Shown piece by piece: positions 125-44,555 of a stretch of 64,000 nucleotides of DNA. Source of the stretch: Bacteroidota bacterium. Its GTDB lineage: Bacteria; Bacteroidota; Bacteroidia; Bacteroidales; JAHJDW01. Positions within the stretch are counted from its first letter, which is position 1; every line of letters starts with the position of its first letter. The translations under genes were made by a program, and so were the position numbers. A model generated the notes under the pieces. The model made no database searches and was not told the origin of the DNA. It saw only the letters and a list, made by a program, of their open reading frames with translations. Where the stretch lies: contig JAZDMK010000301.1 of the NCBI GenBank assembly GCA_043800975.1, positions 1,309-65,308 of the forward strand, given 5' to 3'.

Positions 125-1633
125 ATGATAAAAACATTCAGAACATTAATTTTGTTGACACTATCTGGACTTTTCGCTGTGCAAGGCTTTGCGCAGACCT
201 CTTCGGGAAAAAGTTTTTACGTTGATTATGCGCAGTGGTGCACATTGGGATATCCCAGTATTTACATTAACTGTGGTAATGATGCATCTTTCAATACCGG
301 CAACCAGCTGACGATGGAGGTGTGGGCGAGGGCATACATCTTTGGTGAAAACCGGAAGATCATGGGTAAGATGAGCAACACGCTGAACAACGGATATGTC
401 ATGGGTTTCGAGAACCTGAATATTTACACCGAGATCATGAATCCGGATGCACAGGTGGTGCCGCATGCGGGTACAGGTCCTATGCCTACGGATTCGGCCT
501 GGGTTCACATTGCAACAACCTTTGATGCCAACGGACAAATGGTGAATTATCTGAATGGCGTGAATGTGGGCGAAACAACCGTGTTTCCTCAGTCACCTAT
601 CGCAGCCAATACGGACCCTTTTATCATCGGACTTGCTCCCTGGGATTTGCTGTCGTTCGAATTTGTTGGAAATCTGGATGAGGTTCGTATCTGGAATGTC
701 GCACGCACAGCGCAACAGATCAAGGATGATATGTTTCGTATGCTGAAAGGAAATGAAACCGGACTGGTTGCATATTATAATTTTAATGCCGATACCGATT
801 CGGTTGTACATGATTTTGCTTCGAATACTTTAAACGGAATTTTGAAAAATTCGCAAGCTACCTGTTTCACATGGGCACCTTCATATGCGCCGGTAGGCGA
901 TTCAGCCATGAGCCTGAAAAACGGACTCGCTGCATCCTGGTATGGGAAGGATCCTGACTTGTATACATACGCAATTACGACTAACGGACTCTCTTTAATC
1001 ACAAGTATTCCGGAAAAGGATTTTCAAAAATATGTTTTGTTCGGACACAACAATGGTGTTGGAAAAACCAATGCAGACGCACCTCCCACAGCGCCTCTTG
1101 ACTTTGAACGTATGTCGCGGGTGTGGTATGTGAATCAGGGAGGCGTGTTCGAATCGCAGGTTGTGTTTAATATTCTGGATGGAGCGGGCGGCGGTGCAAC
1201 GCTGACTTCCGCCGGTGCCGATTCACTGTATACACTTCTTGTACGTGACGACAGTACTGGCAATTTCATGCCGATGTATGCCGCAACCACAGTAATGAGC
1301 AACACAGTTCTTTTCGATAAAGTAACACTGCAGGATAAATATTATACGTTGGGTTATTCTTCCAAACGACTTGCGCAAACAGCTGCCATTTCTGAAACAG
1401 AAGGAAAGAAACATACGTTGATTTATCCCAATCCCGTAAAGGAAAATCTGTTTGTAAATGTAACCGATGATTCTGAAATCACATTGTTTGAACTGTCGGG
1501 AAAAGCGGTTTACAACTCTTTTTTCAAAAAAGGGTTGCAGCAGATTCCGGTGCATTCTTTTTCAAAAGGAATTTATTTTATACGCATTCAAACATCTGCC
1601 AACACAGAAACACAGAAAATTGTACTTCAGTAA
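125..1633 (+). CDS. Secreted LamG-like (concanavalin A-like) domain protein with T9SS type A C-terminal domain
   Basis: Signal peptide ending GFA|Q; LamG motifs WVHIATTFD and FVGNLDEVRIWNVART...GLVAYYNF; CTD IYPNPVKE...KGIYFIRI...QKIVLQ. Confidence 0.85.
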   Translation: MIKTFRTLILLTLSGLFAVQGFAQTSSGKSFYVDYAQWCTLGYPSIYINCGNDASFNTGNQLTMEVWARAYIFGENRKIMGKMSNTLNNGYVMGFENLNIYTEIMNPDAQVVPHAGTGPMPTDSAWVHIATTFDANGQMVNYLNGVNVGETTVFPQSPIAANTDPFIIGLAPWDLLSFEFVGNLDEVRIWNVARTAQQIKDDMFRMLKGNETGLVAYYNFNADTDSVVHDFASNTLNGILKNSQATCFTWAPSYAPVGDSAMSLKNGLAASWYGKDPDLYTYAITTNGLSLITSIPEKDFQKYVLFGHNNGVGKTNADAPPTAPLDFERMSRVWYVNQGGVFESQVVFNILDGAGGGATLTSAGADSLYTLLVRDDSTGNFMPMYAATTVMSNTVLFDKVTLQDKYYTLGYSSKRLAQTAAISETEGKKHTLIYPNPVKENLFVNVTDDSEITLFELSGKAVYNSFFKKGLQQIPVHSFSKGIYFIRIQTSANTETQKIVLQ

Positions 1634-1660
1634 AATCAAAATAAACAAAAGAATATCTGT

Positions 1661-3868
1661 ATGAAAAATCTTGTAAAACATTTCGCGCTGCTCATTCTCT
1701 CTCTAGTAAATGTGGCCACATTCGCACAAAACTTTGCACTCGATCTGGATGCGGTGAATGATAAAATTGGTGTGGCCAATTCAACCTCCATCAATCCTTC
1801 TGCTGCATTAACGGTAGAAGCATGGATCAATGCCGACCTCTGGAAAAGCAGTGTGTGGGCGGGAACCATTGTGGGCAAGCAGGCAACTTCACCCGATCGG
1901 GGTTATTGTTTAACAGCCGGTGAAGGCGGAAAAGCGGAGTTTACAGTTTCTATCGGTGGTATATGGGTAAGCGCCACAACCCCCGCTGTGATGGGCCTCA
2001 ACTCGTGGTACCACGTGGCCGGTGTGTTTGATGGTTCAACCATAAAAGTATATATCAACGGCGAACTGCAGGTGAGCAATCCTGCGGTGGGTGTTATCAG
2101 TACATCTTCCAATACTATGTACATTGGAGAAAATCCTACCTGGACCGGAAGGTATTTCGACGGTACAGTCGATGAAGTACGCATCTGGAACGTGGCACGC
2201 ACACAGTCGGAAATACAAACTAATTTCATAGCCGAACTCACCCTTCCGCAAACCGGACTGGTAGCTTATTACAAGATGAATGAAAACACCGGCACCTCGG
2301 TGGGTGATGCCACCGGAAACGGAAACACAGGCACCATGCTCAATATGGATCCCGCTACTGACTGGGTTCCCGGATTTGTTGTATCCGCTGCTGATGTCGG
2401 TGTGATAGGTATCGCCAGCCCATCGTTGCTGGGACAAGGATTTACAAACAGCGAAAAGATTAAAGTTGAAATTAAAAACTTTTCTGTATATCCGATCACC
2501 GGATTTCAGGTGAGCTATCGTCTGAACGGAGGTGCACCTGTTACTGAAACTGTGAGCACAACCATTCAGCCTTTTGAATCGTATATCTATACATTCTCCG
2601 GAACGGAAAACCTGCAGGGGCAGGGATCAGCTACGGTGAAAGCATACACCAGCTTTGCTACAGATGTCAATTATGCAAACGATACACTTTCGAATACCGT
2701 CACACAGTCATTGACCAACGTGCTTTTCAATAATCTGCAACACAACTTCGGTTCCTACGGGCAGATCAACCACAACATCTTTTACATGCCCGATTCGCTG
2801 AACGATTATAGTCAGATATTGCTGCATGTAAACCTTACCTGTCCTACCGGAGGCTGCGATCCCTGGGATCAGTTTGCACGTATTTCGTTGCGCAAGGATA
2901 ACGAGAAATGGGAGCTGGCACGTTTCATCACACCTTTCGGAATTGCCTGTGGTGGCTGGACATTCGACATCACCGACTTCCGCGAAAAGCTAACAGGAAA
3001 AGTAGATTTCGAATCATTTATTCAGGTGTGGGGTGCATCGGGATGGTTGCTGTATACGCAGATAGAACTGGTTCCCGGAACACCCACATACAAATATGTG
3101 AAGGTGCAAAAGCTGTGGGATGAAGACAACTGGGTGTATGGCGATCCCGGCATTTCCTATAATCTGCCGGATACATTGATGAATGTACCACCCAACACAT
3201 CGGCTTTAAAAATACGCCTGACCAACACAGGGCACGGACAGGGAAATACGAATAATGCAGCCGAGTTTTTTGATGCAACACACGCAATCAACGTAAACAG
3301 CGCGCCTACTTTCACGCATCATTTGTGGAAAGCCGACTGCGGATCGAACAGTTGCACGGCGCAGGCCGGAACTTACACATACTCGCGCGCCGGCTGGTGC
3401 CCGGGGCAGGATGTGCAGCCCGCGTTTTATGATCTGGCCGGAATGTTCACTGCCGGCGGAACCATCTCACTCGATTATGTATTGCAGTCATACACCAATC
3501 TTTTGAACACCGGATACAACAACGGAAGCCACACCGAACCCTTCTTCCGCGTACAGGGATATCTGGTGGCATATGGAAACAGTCCATTGGTGGAAATGAA
3601 AGGAAACACACTGCAAAGCGTGAAGATAAAGGCATTCCCCAATCCAGCAAAAGACAGGATCACGGTGCTTTGCAACGGAAGCCGCAGCGGAGACTGCGCG
3701 ATTGAGATGACCGACGTTACAGGAAAAACGGTAGTCAGACGATATATAAACAAGCCGGATAACACTTGGAGCGAAGAGCTTCCACTGACAAACATCCCTG
3801 CCGGAATTTATGTGCTGCATGTACAAACACCTGCGGGCGTAGCGACGGAGAAGGTGGTGGTTGAGTAA
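1661..3868 (+). CDS. Secreted LamG + Ig-like + peptide-N-glycosidase F-like protein with T9SS CTD
   Basis: LamG (WYHVAGVFDG, FDGTVDEVRIWN); PNGase F-type motifs CDPWD, ELARFITPF, TGHG, AAEF, SRAGWCPG; CTD FPNPAKD...AGIYVLHV...EKVVVE. Confidence 0.85.
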   Translation: MKNLVKHFALLILSLVNVATFAQNFALDLDAVNDKIGVANSTSINPSAALTVEAWINADLWKSSVWAGTIVGKQATSPDRGYCLTAGEGGKAEFTVSIGGIWVSATTPAVMGLNSWYHVAGVFDGSTIKVYINGELQVSNPAVGVISTSSNTMYIGENPTWTGRYFDGTVDEVRIWNVARTQSEIQTNFIAELTLPQTGLVAYYKMNENTGTSVGDATGNGNTGTMLNMDPATDWVPGFVVSAADVGVIGIASPSLLGQGFTNSEKIKVEIKNFSVYPITGFQVSYRLNGGAPVTETVSTTIQPFESYIYTFSGTENLQGQGSATVKAYTSFATDVNYANDTLSNTVTQSLTNVLFNNLQHNFGSYGQINHNIFYMPDSLNDYSQILLHVNLTCPTGGCDPWDQFARISLRKDNEKWELARFITPFGIACGGWTFDITDFREKLTGKVDFESFIQVWGASGWLLYTQIELVPGTPTYKYVKVQKLWDEDNWVYGDPGISYNLPDTLMNVPPNTSALKIRLTNTGHGQGNTNNAAEFFDATHAINVNSAPTFTHHLWKADCGSNSCTAQAGTYTYSRAGWCPGQDVQPAFYDLAGMFTAGGTISLDYVLQSYTNLLNTGYNNGSHTEPFFRVQGYLVAYGNSPLVEMKGNTLQSVKIKAFPNPAKDRITVLCNGSRSGDCAIEMTDVTGKTVVRRYINKPDNTWSEELPLTNIPAGIYVLHVQTPAGVATEKVVVE

Positions 3869-39559: not shown

Positions 39560-40756
39560 TTAAACAAGTTTGGCCATAGCGCGTTTGATACGTTCTACAG
39601 CTTGAATAAGAATTGTATCGGATGTAGCATACGAAATGCGAATGCAGTTTTCATCTCCGAAAGGTTCACCTGAAACAAGAGCTACGTATGCTTTGTTCAA
39701 TAGATACTGTGAGAGGTCATTAGGACATTTGATTGTTGTCTCCCCATCGGATTTGCCAAAATAACTGGAAATATCAGCGAAAATGTAGAAAGCGCCTTGT
39801 GGTGTGTTTGTTTTTACACCGGGAATATCTTTCATCATTTGAAGAACCAGATCGCGACGACTCAGAAAAGTTTTAACCATATCGGAAGTAACATCTTTGC
39901 TGAGATGCATGGCTTCAATAGCTGCACGCTGTGCAATTGAGCATGTTCCTGAAGTAAACTGACTCTGTAATTTCTCAACAGCCTGACAGATAAATTTGGG
40001 TGCGCCTATATAACCAATGCGCCAGCCGGTCATCGCATATCCTTTGGATACGCCATTTACCGTGATAACACGATCTCTGATATTTTCAAACTGGGCGATG
40101 CTTTCGTGTTTTCCAACAAAATTGATGTGTTCATAAATTTCATCCGACAGAATATACATCTGAGGATGTTTTGCAACTACATCGGCAATCATTTTTAATT
40201 CTTCTTTTGAATAAACGGAACCTGTAGGATTGCATGGAGAACTAAACATTAAAAGTTTTGTTTTGCTTGTAATAGCAGCTTCCAGTTGCTGCTTGGTAAT
40301 TTTAAAATCACTTTCGATGGTTGTGGGAATATAAATAGCGCGGGCTTCAGCCATTTTAATAATTTCCTTATAAGAAACCCAGTAGGGTGCAGGCACAACA
40401 ACTTCTTCGCCGGGATTCACTAAACACAGAACCGCATTGGCGATGGAGTGCTTCGCACCAGTAGAAACAACGATTTCGTCCCATGCATAATTCAGGTTGT
40501 TTTCTCTTTTAAATTTATCGGAAATTGCTTCCCGCAGATCTTTGTAGCCTGCAACAGGCGTGTAATGCGAAAAATCTTTATCAATGGCAACTTTGGCAGC
40601 TTTCTTTATCGGATCCGGTGTGTTGAAATCAGGTTCGCCAAGGCTTAAGTTGATTACATCGTACCCCAATGCTTTCAGCTCATTGCTTTTTTTCGACATG
40701 GCCAGTGTTTCCGATTCGGAAAGGCTGTTAATTCTGTTTGATAATACTTGCGTCAT
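39560..40756 (-). CDS. aspC: PLP-dependent class I aminotransferase (aspartate aminotransferase-like)
   Basis: GEPDFNTP, SPCNPTGSVY, SDEIYE, SKGYAMTGWRIGY, IRISYA. Confidence 0.9.
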   Translation of the reverse strand: MTQVLSNRINSLSESETLAMSKKSNELKALGYDVINLSLGEPDFNTPDPIKKAAKVAIDKDFSHYTPVAGYKDLREAISDKFKRENNLNYAWDEIVVSTGAKHSIANAVLCLVNPGEEVVVPAPYWVSYKEIIKMAEARAIYIPTTIESDFKITKQQLEAAITSKTKLLMFSSPCNPTGSVYSKEELKMIADVVAKHPQMYILSDEIYEHINFVGKHESIAQFENIRDRVITVNGVSKGYAMTGWRIGYIGAPKFICQAVEKLQSQFTSGTCSIAQRAAIEAMHLSKDVTSDMVKTFLSRRDLVLQMMKDIPGVKTNTPQGAFYIFADISSYFGKSDGETTIKCPNDLSQYLLNKAYVALVSGEPFGDENCIRISYATSDTILIQAVERIKRAMAKLV

Positions 40757-40878
40757 AACAGTGATTTTTGTTTCAGGTTAGGCAGGAACAAATGTAAAAA
40801 ATTTAATATGAAATCAACAAAAATATTTGAATAGACTGTTGATATTTTCCGATATTTGCTGAACTAAACTCAATTAAA

Positions 40879-41400
40879 ATGGAAGATATTCTTGATATTT
40901 GTAAATACATCCTGCCTTCAGTGGTTGTTTTTGTTACTGCTTTCTACCTCTTGAAAACATTTTTGCAGGCAGATCACAAAAAGCGTCTGGTTGAAATACG
41001 TATGGGAAACAATAAAGTGATTACTCCTTTGCGTTTACAGGCATATGAAAGAGTTGTACTGCTTTTAGAAAGAATTTCTCCCGAAAGTATTATTTCCCGT
41101 TCCAATATCTCCGGAAGTACAGCGTCTCAATTGCAGTTGCAGCTTATTTCTGCCATCCGTACTGAGTTTGAACATAATCTTTCGCAACAGGTTTATATGT
41201 CTGATTCAGCATGGGAAATGGTTAAGAATGCAAAAGAAGAAACCATCAAAATGATCAACCTTTCAATGAGTAAACTTTCGGATAGTGCACAGGGAATGGA
41301 TCTATGCAAAATTCTGCTCGAAATGACAACGAAAATGGAGAAACTGCCTACCGTTAATGCACTGGAGTATGTGAAAAGAGAAGTTCGCCAGAATTTCTAA
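40879..41400 (+). CDS. Hypothetical membrane-anchored protein
   Basis: N-terminal TM helix; PLRLQAYER..LLLERISP, EFEHNLSQQVY. Confidence 0.85.
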   Translation: MEDILDICKYILPSVVVFVTAFYLLKTFLQADHKKRLVEIRMGNNKVITPLRLQAYERVVLLLERISPESIISRSNISGSTASQLQLQLISAIRTEFEHNLSQQVYMSDSAWEMVKNAKEETIKMINLSMSKLSDSAQGMDLCKILLEMTTKMEKLPTVNALEYVKREVRQNF

Positions 41401-41401
41401 A

Positions 41402-41578
41402 ATGAAAAAAGTAAAGAAAATAATATCTCTTTCACTTTATCTGAAAATTTTAATTGGAATTTTTATTCTGTCCTTCATGTCAACGCAGATTTCGTGCAGA
41501 TCAAAGAAGAAAGTGGTGCGTTGTTACAGAACTTCTACAAGCCCAGCTTTTCGGATTGAAAAGGATAAGAGTAATTAA
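41402..41578 (+). CDS. Small cationic lipopeptide-like protein, copy 1 (58 aa, below the ORF-track cutoff)
   Basis: MKKVKKIISLSLYLKILIGIFILSFMSTQISCRSKKKVVRCYRTSTSPAFRIEKDKSN*; paralog next door differs at many synonymous sites. Confidence 0.8.
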   Translation: MKKVKKIISLSLYLKILIGIFILSFMSTQISCRSKKKVVRCYRTSTSPAFRIEKDKSN

Positions 41579-41611
41579 GTTACACCAGAATTTCTGATAG
41601 AAAATCAATAC

Positions 41612-41785
41612 ATGAAAAGAGAAAAGAAAAAACTACCCAAACATATTTACCTTAAAATTCTGATTGGAGTTTTTATTCTATCCTTCATGACAACACAGAT
41701 GTCGTGCAAGCATAAGAAGAAGCAAATGCGGTGTTATAAGTTCTCAATTTCTCCTTCATTTCTGATTAAGGATAAAAGTTATTGA
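41612..41785 (+). CDS. Small cationic lipopeptide-like protein, copy 2 (57 aa, below the ORF-track cutoff)
   Basis: MKREKKKLPKHIYLKILIGVFILSFMTTQMSCKHKKKQMRCYKFSISPSFLIKDKSY*; 36 of 57 residues identical to copy 1 by manual alignment. Confidence 0.8.
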   Translation: MKREKKKLPKHIYLKILIGVFILSFMTTQMSCKHKKKQMRCYKFSISPSFLIKDKSY

Positions 41786-41810
41786 GTTATTAGGTTATTC
41801 AGTTAATTGA
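41778..41810 (+). repeat. GTTATTGA-type 8-mer array
   Basis: GTTATTGA GTTATTAG GTTATTCA GTTAATTGA overlapping the stop of the small ORF. Confidence 0.75.
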
Positions 41811-41829
41811 GGAGTGGCCATAAATTCTT

Positions 41830-42444
41830 TTAATAAACTATTTTACACCTTTTGCAAAACCATTCGTAGCATGGACTCCATAATTTATTTGCTTCTTTTT
41901 CACTATAGACCTGATATACTTTTTCAGTTTTGTTTTCAATAATTGAGGTATATCCGTTCTTTTTAAAGTCTCTCCAATATTTTTTTTCATGGCGTTTATT
42001 TTTGAACCATACATCAACAAAAGAGGGAGATATTCCAATAGCCATATCCTTTTTATGGCAAGCAGTACAGAGAGTGTCATATGTTTTGTTAGGGCAATTT
42101 TCAATTAATTCGAAATTTAATTCTGTGATTTTATTTTCAGCAATTGTCAATTTAATTGTGTCGGTTTTGCCTTTGCCGATTGAAGTAGCATAAGTTTTGT
42201 AACATCCGGGAATTAATTTCACAAATTCAAAAAATCCTGTACTATCAGTAACAGTTCCGAAAACCTTAGAATCATTTACTCTTATTATAACAATTATAGA
42301 AAACGGAACAAGTTCTTTTGTTCTTTTTTGAATTACATAGCCATGTATTTCTCCAGTCTGGGAAAAGCCTACTTCAATTGAAAATATAGTTGCAAGAACA
42401 ATTGATGCGAGGAATAGCTTTATGAATCTGGTGAATGTCATCAT
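41830..42444 (-). CDS. Exported protein with carboxypeptidase-regulatory-like domain and Cys-rich C-terminus
   Basis: QTGEIHGYVI...GTVTDSTGFF...PGCYK; CTACH and WFCKRC motifs. Confidence 0.75.
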   Translation of the reverse strand: MMTFTRFIKLFLASIVLATIFSIEVGFSQTGEIHGYVIQKRTKELVPFSIIVIIRVNDSKVFGTVTDSTGFFEFVKLIPGCYKTYATSIGKGKTDTIKLTIAENKITELNFELIENCPNKTYDTLCTACHKKDMAIGISPSFVDVWFKNKRHEKKYWRDFKKNGYTSIIENKTEKVYQVYSEKEANKLWSPCYEWFCKRCKIVY

Positions 42445-42484
42445 GAAATTATGATGAAAAATTATCGAATTTCCATAAAAAACA

Positions 42485-42519
42485 AAAAATCGTAAATCGG
42501 CAATCGTAAATCGAAAATC
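42485..42519 (-). repeat. GATTTAC-type heptamer array behind the L,D-transpeptidase stop
   Basis: Minus strand GATTTTC GATTTAC GATTGCC GATTTAC GATTTTT. Confidence 0.75.
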
Positions 42520-42521
42520 AT

Positions 42522-44555
42522 TCAGATTCCTTTCTGCGTACTCAGCAAATCCTTATCCTTCTTCATCCAGTTTTTCTCAACAGATAATTTTCTGCGAAGG
42601 GAATAGTTGTTCAATGCACGTAAAATAGCTTTGTCCTTGTCGTAATGGTCATCCCTGTACTGCATGGTTCCATCTTCATCTACCCAGCATGTGATATAAT
42701 CCACATAAACCATGATTTGTTTTTTTAACAAATGAGAGGAAGGTGATTTTTTGAAGCCAGGCTTCGCCATTGTTTCCTGGTGTTTTTTCCACTGTTTTAA
42801 TTTTTCCTGAAGTTTGTATTTTAATTCTTTTTTTCCTTCAGGTTTCATACCGACCAGAATTCGAACGTCATCAATATCCATTGACATTTTTCCATATTTC
42901 AAAACAAATTCACCCAGTTCGAGGGGTTCTTCCACACGCATGCATCCATGACTAACCGCGCGGTAATTGCTGCGGAAAGGTGCGCGCTTGGGTGTGTCGT
43001 GAAGATAAATACTGAAAGGATTTCTGAAAATGAATTTAATTTTACCCAATGCATTGAATGCGCCGGGCTCCTGAGAAAAGCGGAAAGGCATATGCGTGGG
43101 TGAATATTTTTTCCAGTTTACTTTTGAAGGATCCACCAATGAATCTTTCAGATATACTTTAAATCCTTGTTTTTTCAGGTAAAGTGAATCTTTCCAGATA
43201 TCAAAAATCATTTCTTTTTCTGCAATATTTTTGGGAACATCCCAGGTGGGATTCAAAACAAGATACATGATTGGGCCCGTCATGGTTGGTGTTTCCAGAT
43301 TTTTGGGTTCATCCATTTTGCGCCGGGTCTTTAACCATTTTTTAAACTTTTCTTCATACCCCCATTCTCTTTTTTTACCGCAACAAATATTGATTTTATT
43401 CACTACCGTATCGGCAATATAGGTTTGCAATTGAAATGCAGCTAAGTTTACTTTGATGCAGGGCTCTGCGGTTGGTGCACAAAACCAGCGCAACCTTTCC
43501 ATGTTGACTTTGATTTTGTCTATTCTTTTTGCAACAGAAATATTTAAATTTTTGCGCGTTACTTCATTTAATTTTCCATCGACAACCAGGTTGTTGTTTT
43601 CCTGAAAGCGGCTGATTGCATCGATAATTGTAATGTCAAATTCACGAAAAACTTTTTTACTATAGGCTAATGGATCCAGCGCACGCGTAATCATTAGTTT
43701 CTGTGCAATCAAATGAACAAGTTTGGAAGTATCACCTTCTTTTAAATTTTCTGCACGCTGTGGAATACTGGTTGTATCTGATTTCTTTTCAAGCTCCATC
43801 ATTCTTTTTAATTCTTTTTTCAGACGAAGATAAGGCAATGCCTTAGGCTGAATGCTGTTGATGTACGCCAGAATATCTTTTTCAAAAAGCGGTGTGAAAA
43901 CTTCGCCGGGTAGTGGAATTTTATTGGGAAGACTGTATCCGTCAGGATCAATATCTTTGGGGTTAATAACGCCGTATTTCAAATCGTGGCAATAGTTCAC
44001 AACACCATTGCTGATCATTAATTCAATGTTTGCAAGCACTGAATAATTAATTTCTTTTTCCAGTTTTGATTTATTCAAATAATCGTGGATGTATGCTGAA
44101 ATAAAAGGCTGGTCATAGTAGTTTGGAGATAGTCCGTCCTCATCCGATTTTTTTAAAAAACCGATTATGCTGTCAACCTTTGAACTCAATGGAAGTGTAT
44201 TGGTCCAGAAAGGAGCATAATTTCTTTTCTGATAAAAAATAGCCAGCGAATCAAAGTGTTCAAAGTGATCATGACAGATACGGAATGTGTCCTTTTCTTT
44301 ATTAAACCTTGCTTTCAATACATCGTTATATTTTGCCGAATCAAATCCGGGCACAGCTGAATAGGGATTATCTTTTTTCACTTTATCACCGCATCCGCTG
44401 ATAACGGCCATCATTATGATAATAGAAATAATCCCGGAAAATGAAATCAGGAATTTTAGTTTTTGTTTTGAAAATAATGTAGTGCGCATATTGTTGTGTT
44501 GTATCATTAATTTTATGAGGAAATTATTTTTTCTTGGCTGAATAAATACTGGCAT
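42522..44555 (-). CDS. L,D-transpeptidase (YcbB/LdtD-like) lipoprotein
   Basis: VNMERLRW, NPTWDVP, NALGKIKFIF.N..SIYLHDTP, RAVSHGCMRV; true start possibly 44489; lipobox ISGC. Confidence 0.92.
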   Translation of the reverse strand: MPVFIQPRKNNFLIKLMIQHNNMRTTLFSKQKLKFLISFSGIISIIIMMAVISGCGDKVKKDNPYSAVPGFDSAKYNDVLKARFNKEKDTFRICHDHFEHFDSLAIFYQKRNYAPFWTNTLPLSSKVDSIIGFLKKSDEDGLSPNYYDQPFISAYIHDYLNKSKLEKEINYSVLANIELMISNGVVNYCHDLKYGVINPKDIDPDGYSLPNKIPLPGEVFTPLFEKDILAYINSIQPKALPYLRLKKELKRMMELEKKSDTTSIPQRAENLKEGDTSKLVHLIAQKLMITRALDPLAYSKKVFREFDITIIDAISRFQENNNLVVDGKLNEVTRKNLNISVAKRIDKIKVNMERLRWFCAPTAEPCIKVNLAAFQLQTYIADTVVNKINICCGKKREWGYEEKFKKWLKTRRKMDEPKNLETPTMTGPIMYLVLNPTWDVPKNIAEKEMIFDIWKDSLYLKKQGFKVYLKDSLVDPSKVNWKKYSPTHMPFRFSQEPGAFNALGKIKFIFRNPFSIYLHDTPKRAPFRSNYRAVSHGCMRVEEPLELGEFVLKYGKMSMDIDDVRILVGMKPEGKKELKYKLQEKLKQWKKHQETMAKPGFKKSPSSHLLKKQIMVYVDYITCWVDEDGTMQYRDDHYDKDKAILRALNNYSLRRKLSVEKNWMKKDKDLLSTQKGI

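Follow-up and report, generated by a model that had tools for sequence, protein, structure and literature searches.

What are the two short open reading frames (ORFs) that stand side by side, uncalled, in a 64,000-nucleotide stretch of a Bacteroidota bacterium genome (assembly GCA_043800975.1, contig JAZDMK010000301.1, positions 1,309 to 65,308; the whole stretch is called the window here), and what might their products do? By profile homology we find them to be members of a new, uncurated family of proteins that carry a signal-like N-terminal module followed by Cys-Tyr (CY), and that are tied to a radical S-adenosylmethionine (SAM)/SPASM enzyme, encoded in this genome on a different contig, C4. 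We think it probable that the pair encodes exported, possibly lipidated precursor peptides, which the C4 enzyme modifies at Cys-Tyr in trans. More tentatively, and as a proposal that could fall either way, the pair may be satellites of a Bacteroidales-wide system in which one radical SAM/SPASM enzyme performs a new Cys-Tyr modification, perhaps a crosslink centred on that dipeptide, on dozens of dispersed substrates of the Sec/lipoprotein pathway per genome.

Both ORFs lie on the forward strand. ORF1 (58 amino acids, 41402-41578) has a Lys-rich start, a hydrophobic segment with K15-x3-G19, Cys32 (codon at 41495-41497), the basic run RSKKKVVR and then Cys41-Tyr42 (41522-41527); its paralog ORF2 (57 amino acids, 41612-41785) has Cys32 at 41705-41707 and Cys41-Tyr42 at 41732-41737, so that Cys32, Cys41 and Tyr42 are kept in both. 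Aligned over their full length, the products share 36 of 57 residues (63%), with 46 of 57 positives and one gap of a single residue (BLASTP, expectation (E) value 3e-23), which confirms the two frames and the identity reported in a preliminary description of this DNA. That description had also read synonymous differences at conserved residues as purifying selection, and the codon table bears it out: besides one codon gap, 12 codons differ synonymously and 21 non-synonymously, with synonymous changes at kept residues in codons 13 (TAT/TAC), 14 (CTG/CTT), 17 (TTA/CTG), 40 (CGT/CGG) and 42 (TAC/TAT). Nei-Gojobori estimates are 0.25 for non-synonymous (dN) and 1.33 for synonymous (dS) divergence, a dN/dS of 0.19 which is rough, dS being near saturation over 57 codons.

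An 11-mer, CCAGAATTTCT, occurs as exact copies on the forward strand ahead of each ORF (41388-41398 and 41585-41595), and a degenerate third copy, CCATAAATTCT, matching at 9 of 11 positions, stands behind ORF2 on the same strand (41818-41828). The two exact matches are the only ones in the window, where 0.09 are expected, and two or more were seen in 0 of 100 shuffles. Since the repeat brackets each unit, the pair is a tandem duplication, as had been supposed from the two exact copies. Short as they are, and absent from protein collections, the ORFs might be taken for chance open frames in a duplicated intergenic stretch; this is hardly credible, given that substitutions favour synonymous sites, that both other forward frames carry stops in the ORF1 copy and the ORF2 copy alike, and that a profile built from other genomes (described below) recognises both ORFs at about 1e-6. 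The best explanation of the sequences is that ORF1 and ORF2 are real, recently duplicated genes for small peptides whose export is predicted.

Neither exact sequence is among the roughly 15 billion predicted proteins of a large collection, which agrees with the statement of the preliminary description that the ORF track had missed them, and a homologous-protein search with ORF1 as the query gave no match. Pfam and NCBIfam returned only chance matches below threshold for the two products (Ninjurin with 15 bits where the cut-off is 26, LenA with 12-17 where it is 350), and in a protein atlas no score exceeded 0.87 and no named family stood above chance. Two metagenome contigs do cover parts of the pair, at depths of about 3 where errors may occur. 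One (X7), over 41413-41725, differs by five substitutions and by one in-frame deletion of three nucleotides in the Lys run, which we count in favour of coding; the other (X1), aligned with 41320-41498, follows ORF1 as far as the Cys32 codon and continues with the ORF2 mature-region sequence, as might result from recombination of the duplication to a single copy or from a collapse in assembly.

The pair has many relatives in its own genome (G000, with its contigs numbered C and the loci numbered L). A six-frame search of G000 found related small ORFs in a tandem array of four genes on C206 and one more on C267; together with the window pair these make up a profile of seven sequences, A1, which contains no enzyme-adjacent gene. 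All seven share K15, G19, L23, C32, K36, C41 and Y42, and in six of them exactly 8 residues separate the two Cys (C-x8-C-Y). The A1 profile then reached longer, lipoprotein-like ORFs on C4 and C94, with the same start and one to three further Cys-Tyr motifs. Another profile, A3, aligns 57 modules, all of them from enzyme-adjacent genes of foreign genomes, with C and Y as its sole invariant columns; searched against the 94,844 six-frame ORFs of G000, its top 19 matches were all members of the CY family. With two weaker ones this gives about 21 members on 8 contigs, the GC content of which (0.376-0.403) agrees with a genome mean of 0.399 (standard deviation 0.015).

These paralogs share a signal-peptide-like segment of the form K-(L/I)-x-(L/I)-G, mostly with a lipobox Cys behind it, and after that the Cys-Tyr, which is invariant. 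As read from the alignments, the module of the family is a basic stretch with the K-(L/I)-x-(L/I)-G hydrophobic segment, a cleavage site, and the invariant Cys-Tyr between 1 and about 13 residues further on. What follows varies, from nothing at all to short Pro/Asp-rich tails with extra CY motifs, an unrecognised domain of about 120 residues, or a TonB_C domain. The early remark that the window peptides carry a second Cys next to Tyr fits with this, Cys-Tyr being the sole invariant element of the wider family.

Several members stand in surroundings of their own. The short cationic array on C206 (4999-5610, L003) is preceded by a gene for a 163-residue secreted protein with a Cys/His pattern, and the short cationic pair on C267 (2468-2947, L004) precedes a 147-residue protein with a PEFPGG motif, by eye typical of TonB_C-like proteins. 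Larger CY-module proteins are also encoded away from the enzyme gene: one on C300 (23318-23833, minus strand) combines a lipobox and a Ser-Cys-Tyr site with a PEFPGG/TonB_C-like part, and another, of 217 residues, on C125 (4906-5559, plus strand) is the best G000 match (2e-12) of a foreign six-sequence module profile. Beyond G000, a profile search of 1.84 billion representative proteins at E of 1e-3 or below gave 10 matches, namely six relatives, two of the C206 copies and two (P0004 and P0008) that were judged false, being repeat proteins. The C-x8-C-Y spacing is found again in the short relatives P0003, P0005, P0006 and P0010, which come from other metagenomes.

The preliminary description had suggested a profile and neighbourhood search for radical SAM/SPASM genes across relatives, and such an enzyme is indeed found beside CY genes. 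In G000 it is encoded on C4 (60-1091) as a protein of 343 residues with Radical_SAM and SPASM domains, at the end of an array of six to seven CY genes (1078-3342, minus strand), the last of which overlaps the enzyme gene. This locus (L025, C4:60-3342) lies outside the window and has a divergent ABC ATPase gene and a cytochrome c assembly gene upstream. The CxxxCxxC motif is conserved among orthologs of the enzyme, and so are eight other Cys of the SPASM region, all of them invariant. In the C4 protein the radical SAM core begins at residue 12 of 343, and there is no N-terminal RiPP recognition element (RRE; RiPP, peptide made on the ribosome and modified after translation). No NCBIfam model reaches its cut-off with this protein: the best, GeoRSP, scores 86 bits against 400, and the StsB and PapB models match weakly. 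Among solved proteins compared by sequence, the nearest are SkfB (3.6e-17) and PqqE (1.4e-13, over the full length), both of them peptide-modifying enzymes, with the anaerobic sulfatase-maturating enzyme (anSME; PDB 4k37) further off at 1.4e-8.

A scan of species-representative genomes gave 258 loci with relatives of the enzyme, of which the best 80 were used; nearly all of these 80 are from Bacteroidales, including the cultured Dysgonomonas gadei (ATCC BAA-286, L096), D. hofstadii (DSM 104969, L088) and D. termitidis. Among the 76 loci having at least 400 nucleotides upstream, the adjacent upstream ORF on the same strand (350 residues or fewer) contains Cys-Tyr in 62, and for half of the 14 exceptions (L064, L079, L083, L089, L103, L108 and L111) a CY-bearing A1 match stands beside the enzyme gene, sometimes downstream. 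Gene order is not fixed, the CY-module gene lying 3′ of the radical SAM gene in L079, L083, L103, L106 and L068. The partners, 149 proteins in runs of one to nine genes, carry one CY motif in 82 cases, two in 49 and three in 18, and fall into short proteins of 50-135 residues, proteins of about 176 residues with a C-terminal domain that matches no Pfam or NCBIfam family, and proteins of 190-250 residues with a TonB_C domain. Their 223 CY sites have the consensus (V/I)-(T/S/M)-C-Y-(D/E/K)-(P/V/I)-(V/A/I)-x-P, in which D, E or K predominates at position +2 and only the C and Y are invariant.

When ORFs of at least 100 residues from the 80 loci were clustered, three families recurred, namely the enzyme, in 78 loci, and two types of partner, in 35 and 28; no other gene family occurred in more than six loci, and no recurrent protease, ABC exporter or recognition protein was among them. 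Since only the enzyme and its partner families recur, the system would seem to consist of enzyme and substrates and to have no protease, transporter or recognition protein of its own. The CY-module proteins could, alternatively, be partners, anchors or regulators of the enzyme, or be merely co-regulated with it, and an enzyme whose core begins at residue 12 with no RRE in front would suit such a role. We regard this as improbable: loci hold up to nine paralogous partners, which combine unrelated C-terminal domains with one shared short motif, and so many paralogs with a single motif in common look like precursors rather than a subunit; the peptide-modifying nature of SkfB and PqqE speaks in the same sense.

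That the window pair belongs with these enzyme partners is supported from both directions. Run over the 80 foreign loci, which have 13,561 ORFs in six frames, A1 gave 61 matches at E below 1, and all 61 are on the strand of the enzyme gene, where the background is 6,329 of 13,561; CY is carried by 60 of the 61, compared with 940 of the 13,561. The best of them (6e-7) comes from D. hofstadii, where it stands immediately upstream of the gene for the enzyme. Conversely, A3 searched against the six-frame ORFs of the whole G000 genome recognises ORF1 at 8.6e-7 (6.3e-7 in a second search) and ORF2 at 1.0e-6 (6.1e-7), which are ranks 5 and 6 among the 94,844 ORFs, and a direct hhalign comparison of A1 with A3 gives a probability of 97.3% (E 2.1e-11) over 37 columns. 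The N-terminal module and the Cys-Tyr are thus present in the window pair and the enzyme is encoded in the same genome, while the pair itself is not adjacent to the enzyme gene. The idea, put forward at the outset, that these are RiPP-like precursors modified in trans gains concrete support from this: the module and Cys-Tyr of the pair are what mark enzyme-adjacent genes, and the enzyme is there on C4.

Family and enzyme also keep company across genomes. Among 200 further genomes sampled from the order, 13 have an ortholog of the enzyme (42-54% identity), and A3 at E of 1e-4 or below finds modules in six of these 13 (G017, G025, G037, G068, G078 and G177) and in none of the 187 enzyme-negative genomes. 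Of four genomes from the same family as G000, one (G002) has the enzyme (1.4e-165) and four module matches, one directly upstream of the enzyme gene and the others on different contigs, and the remaining three (G001, G003 and G004) have neither. Module copies in trans to the enzyme exist in G037, G177 and G068 as well as in G002. The short cationic forms, as searched with A1, were found only in G037 and G177, both enzyme-positive, in arrays away from the enzyme gene; weak A1 matches in the enzyme-negative genomes G046, G149, G170 and G189 proved to be ordinary lipoproteins that lack CY.

Membership of this family also bears on another proposal, that the pair is a small toxin/antidote or a set of lysis-type lipoproteins with no link to a maturase. 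Small, basic, single-helix peptides in tandem would suit it, and the protein atlas did bring up a colicin lysis-protein cluster, at a score of 0.76 that is chance level for that tool. Yet the two peptides are paralogs of one another and not two different partners, and both fall in the CY-module family, with no Pfam or NCBIfam match; we consider this proposal very improbable, and nothing in our results lends support to the toxin/antidote pair listed among the first suggestions.

We infer, from the genes and family described, their profile homology, synteny and co-occurrence, the following course of events for the peptides as precursors. The C4 radical SAM/SPASM enzyme, acting in the cytoplasm, would modify the Cys-Tyr of each substrate before export, including that of the dispersed window pair. 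The peptide would then be exported by the Sec pathway with the hydrophobic segment as its signal, and Lgt and signal peptidase II would leave an N-terminal diacylglyceryl-Cys wherever the lipobox is functional. The product of each window gene would be a membrane-anchored peptide of 26-27 residues with a charge of +7 and one modified Cys-Tyr. The modification is likely to be local to each motif, because the proteins carry one, two or three motifs, around which no other residue is invariant. As to its chemistry we can offer guesses, namely that the Cys is oxidised or enters a local crosslink of the thioether type, and, if it is a crosslink, a mass change of -2 Da.

A predicted complex of the enzyme, supplied with three 4Fe-4S clusters and SAM, with ORF1 reached an ipSAE of 0.42 where the best control had 0.01, which the method rates as weak support. 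The mark set for this score is reached by 58 of 80 solved complexes and by two of 110 mismatched pairs, and passes at 0.60 or below comprise seven of the 80 solved complexes and both mismatches. The partner has a pLDDT of at least 50 and the runs agree in at least 29% of contacts; the alignments (our own) and the added ligands differ from the conditions under which the method was calibrated.

Under a lipobox rule of the PROSITE PS51257 type, 15 of 21 G000 paralogs pass, and 73 of 149 foreign partners do so compared with 52 of 399 control ORFs. Some members have, just before CY, an Ala-Gln-type site for signal peptidase I in place of the lipobox Cys, and we argue from this replacement that the hydrophobic segment really is a cleaved signal. 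For the window pair itself, the preliminary description had foreseen cleavage at a lipobox-like site to leave a strongly basic part of 26-27 residues. The second half of this stands, by count of the translations: 27 residues follow Cys32 in ORF1 and 26 in ORF2, each with a net charge of about +7. The site, by contrast, reads T-Q-(I/M)-S-C and, with Gln at -3, fails this rule.

This failure is the first of a number of points that weigh against precursors modified by the C4 enzyme. The 8 residues after Cys32 are strongly basic, and a strongly basic run right after the cleavage site hinders Sec translocation in Escherichia coli. The only match to the enzyme in G000 at E of 1e-40 or below is that on C4, and the window locus has none, so that action in trans has to be supposed. 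After CY the window peptides (CYRTS and CYKFS) do not have the (D/E)-x-x-x-P flavour frequent in enzyme-adjacent proteins. Raw downstream ORFs, a crude control for the partner statistics, carry CY in 25 of 206 cases. In the order sample, seven of the 13 enzyme-positive genomes have no A3 match at the threshold, and those inspected carry TonB_C-type partners with CY a long way from the signal peptide; G037 and G177, which are of one genus, are kin and so not independent; and A3 was built partly from the genomes searched, so that enzyme-adjacent matches there are expected by construction, a caveat that spares the 0 of 187 enzyme-negative genomes and the matches in trans. Finally, the reaction chemistry cannot be read from homology, and no curated family covers the enzyme.

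Upstream of the pair, on the plus strand, is a gene for a DUF7935 protein of 173 residues (40879-41400, PF25589, E 9.8e-60), with its stop codon one nucleotide from the start codon of ORF1, which makes co-transcription by read-through likely; no terminator-like sites were found in 40500-42600, and this gene is probably no more to the pair than the source of its transcription. A promoter scan gave 8 sites where 7.7 were expected and is uninformative, the sigma-70 consensus being ill-suited to Bacteroidota. Eight relatives keep the DUF7935 gene, often beside the same aminotransferase gene, and in none of them is there a CY ORF behind it; the gene found there instead varies from genome to genome. 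A link with DUF7935 was rejected, the gene being probably no functional partner, and by this comparison of sequences the pair was inserted in its own lineage, at a junction that varies.

An insertion at a spot that is empty in eight relatives could have brought in true family members that are now orphans, no longer serviced by the enzyme and persisting as plain small cationic membrane proteins or lipoproteins, or as decaying genes. Such a reading would draw on their position in trans to the enzyme, on the non-canonical lipobox, on a region after CY that differs from the consensus of adjacent partners, and on the absence of both ORFs from the protein collection. Against this stand the dN/dS of 0.19 and the retention of Cys32, Cys41 and Tyr42 in both copies; the C-x8-C-Y spacing is moreover held in six of the seven A1 members and in P0003, P0005, P0006 and P0010, and the short forms occur, among the genomes searched, only in the enzyme-positive G037 and G177. 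We therefore see orphaned genes as unlikely, and keep to precursors that are probably still modified by the C4 enzyme.

Downstream of the pair, and convergent with it, lies a gene for a secreted protein of 204 residues (41830-42444, minus strand) in which a CarboxypepD_reg domain (E 2.7e-8) is accompanied by a C-x-x-C-H motif; a weak Cytochrome_CBB3 match (E 0.024) suggests that it may be a small haem-binding fusion. Two genes from the pair is a 677-residue L,D-transpeptidase (42522-44555, minus strand; Scaffold, PG_binding_1 and YkuD domains). A link with the latter, of the Braun-lipoprotein anchoring type, was considered and dropped, as the gene is convergent, one gene removed, and does not recur beside other family members.

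Several known systems resemble the one proposed here in part. In the DAG-RiPPs, as set out in the text of the paper that describes them, precursors with lipoprotein signals are modified in the cytoplasm by MNIO enzymes of the ChrH/DybH type and then lipidated, from minimal loci of precursor and enzyme that are frequent in Bacteroidota (PNAS 2026, PMC13056109); the term "radical SAM" has 0 occurrences in that text. Compared with it, the CY-module system is alike in its short putative precursors with a lipoprotein-like signal as presumed leader and a Cys-containing core, in its occurrence in Bacteroidota, and in its minimal loci with no dedicated protease or transporter. It differs in that the enzyme is a radical SAM/SPASM protein and not an MNIO (DUF692), that the motif is Cys-Tyr and not CPxCGxG, and that the candidate substrates range from 48-residue peptides to TonB_C-domain proteins, with many copies away from the enzyme gene. 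The window pair and the C4 enzyme would, by this analogy, be a variant of the theme of RiPPs made through the signal-peptide/lipoprotein pathway, and the radical-SAM counterpart of the MNIO-made DAG-RiPPs.

The proposed servicing of many scattered, exported substrates by one SPASM enzyme has a parallel in anSME, to which our enzyme is weakly related in sequence (4k37, above). There, a single cytoplasmic radical SAM/SPASM enzyme acts on a short Cys motif, C/S-x-P/A-x-R, in many exported sulfatases, the genes of which are scattered over the Bacteroidales genome. That motif is absent from the window peptides, and the CY-module proteins are not sulfatases. Like the sactipeptide and ranthipeptide systems (SkfB/SkfA, PapB) and QhpD/QhpC, the CY system has a radical SAM/SPASM gene adjoining genes for Cys-bearing precursors; unlike the sactipeptide and ranthipeptide systems, it has an enzyme with no RRE, loci with no leader protease or ABC exporter, a Sec/lipoprotein signal in place of a leader, and Tyr as the only conserved residue besides Cys. 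The enzyme is not a member of TIGR04133, where it scores 48.4 bits against a cut-off of 425; we take the short name of that model, rSAM_w_lipo, to denote a lipoprotein-tied radical SAM/SPASM family. No Pfam or NCBIfam model describes the CY-module system, and neither does the literature that we found: searches for radical SAM/SPASM enzymes with lipobox, TonB or Bacteroidales precursors gave nothing relevant (the supplementary mining tables of the DAG-RiPP paper not being covered), and the one paper with these terms in common treats ATP-grasp/SPASM loci with GG-motif precursors.

RiPPs of the lipoprotein pathway were first described in 2025-2026, with MNIO enzymes only, and a radical SAM/SPASM version, if true, widens the concept. 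It would combine a target motif of two residues with substrates ranging from mini-peptides to domain proteins, encoded by scattered genes that are serviced in trans, and would account for a set of tiny uncalled genes such as the window ORFs, which are missing even from the 15-billion-protein collection. If true, there would also be a new radical SAM reaction to look for, and a radical-SAM branch of lipidated RiPP/protein hybrids; and as the system is present in cultured Dysgonomonas strains, these proposals are directly testable.

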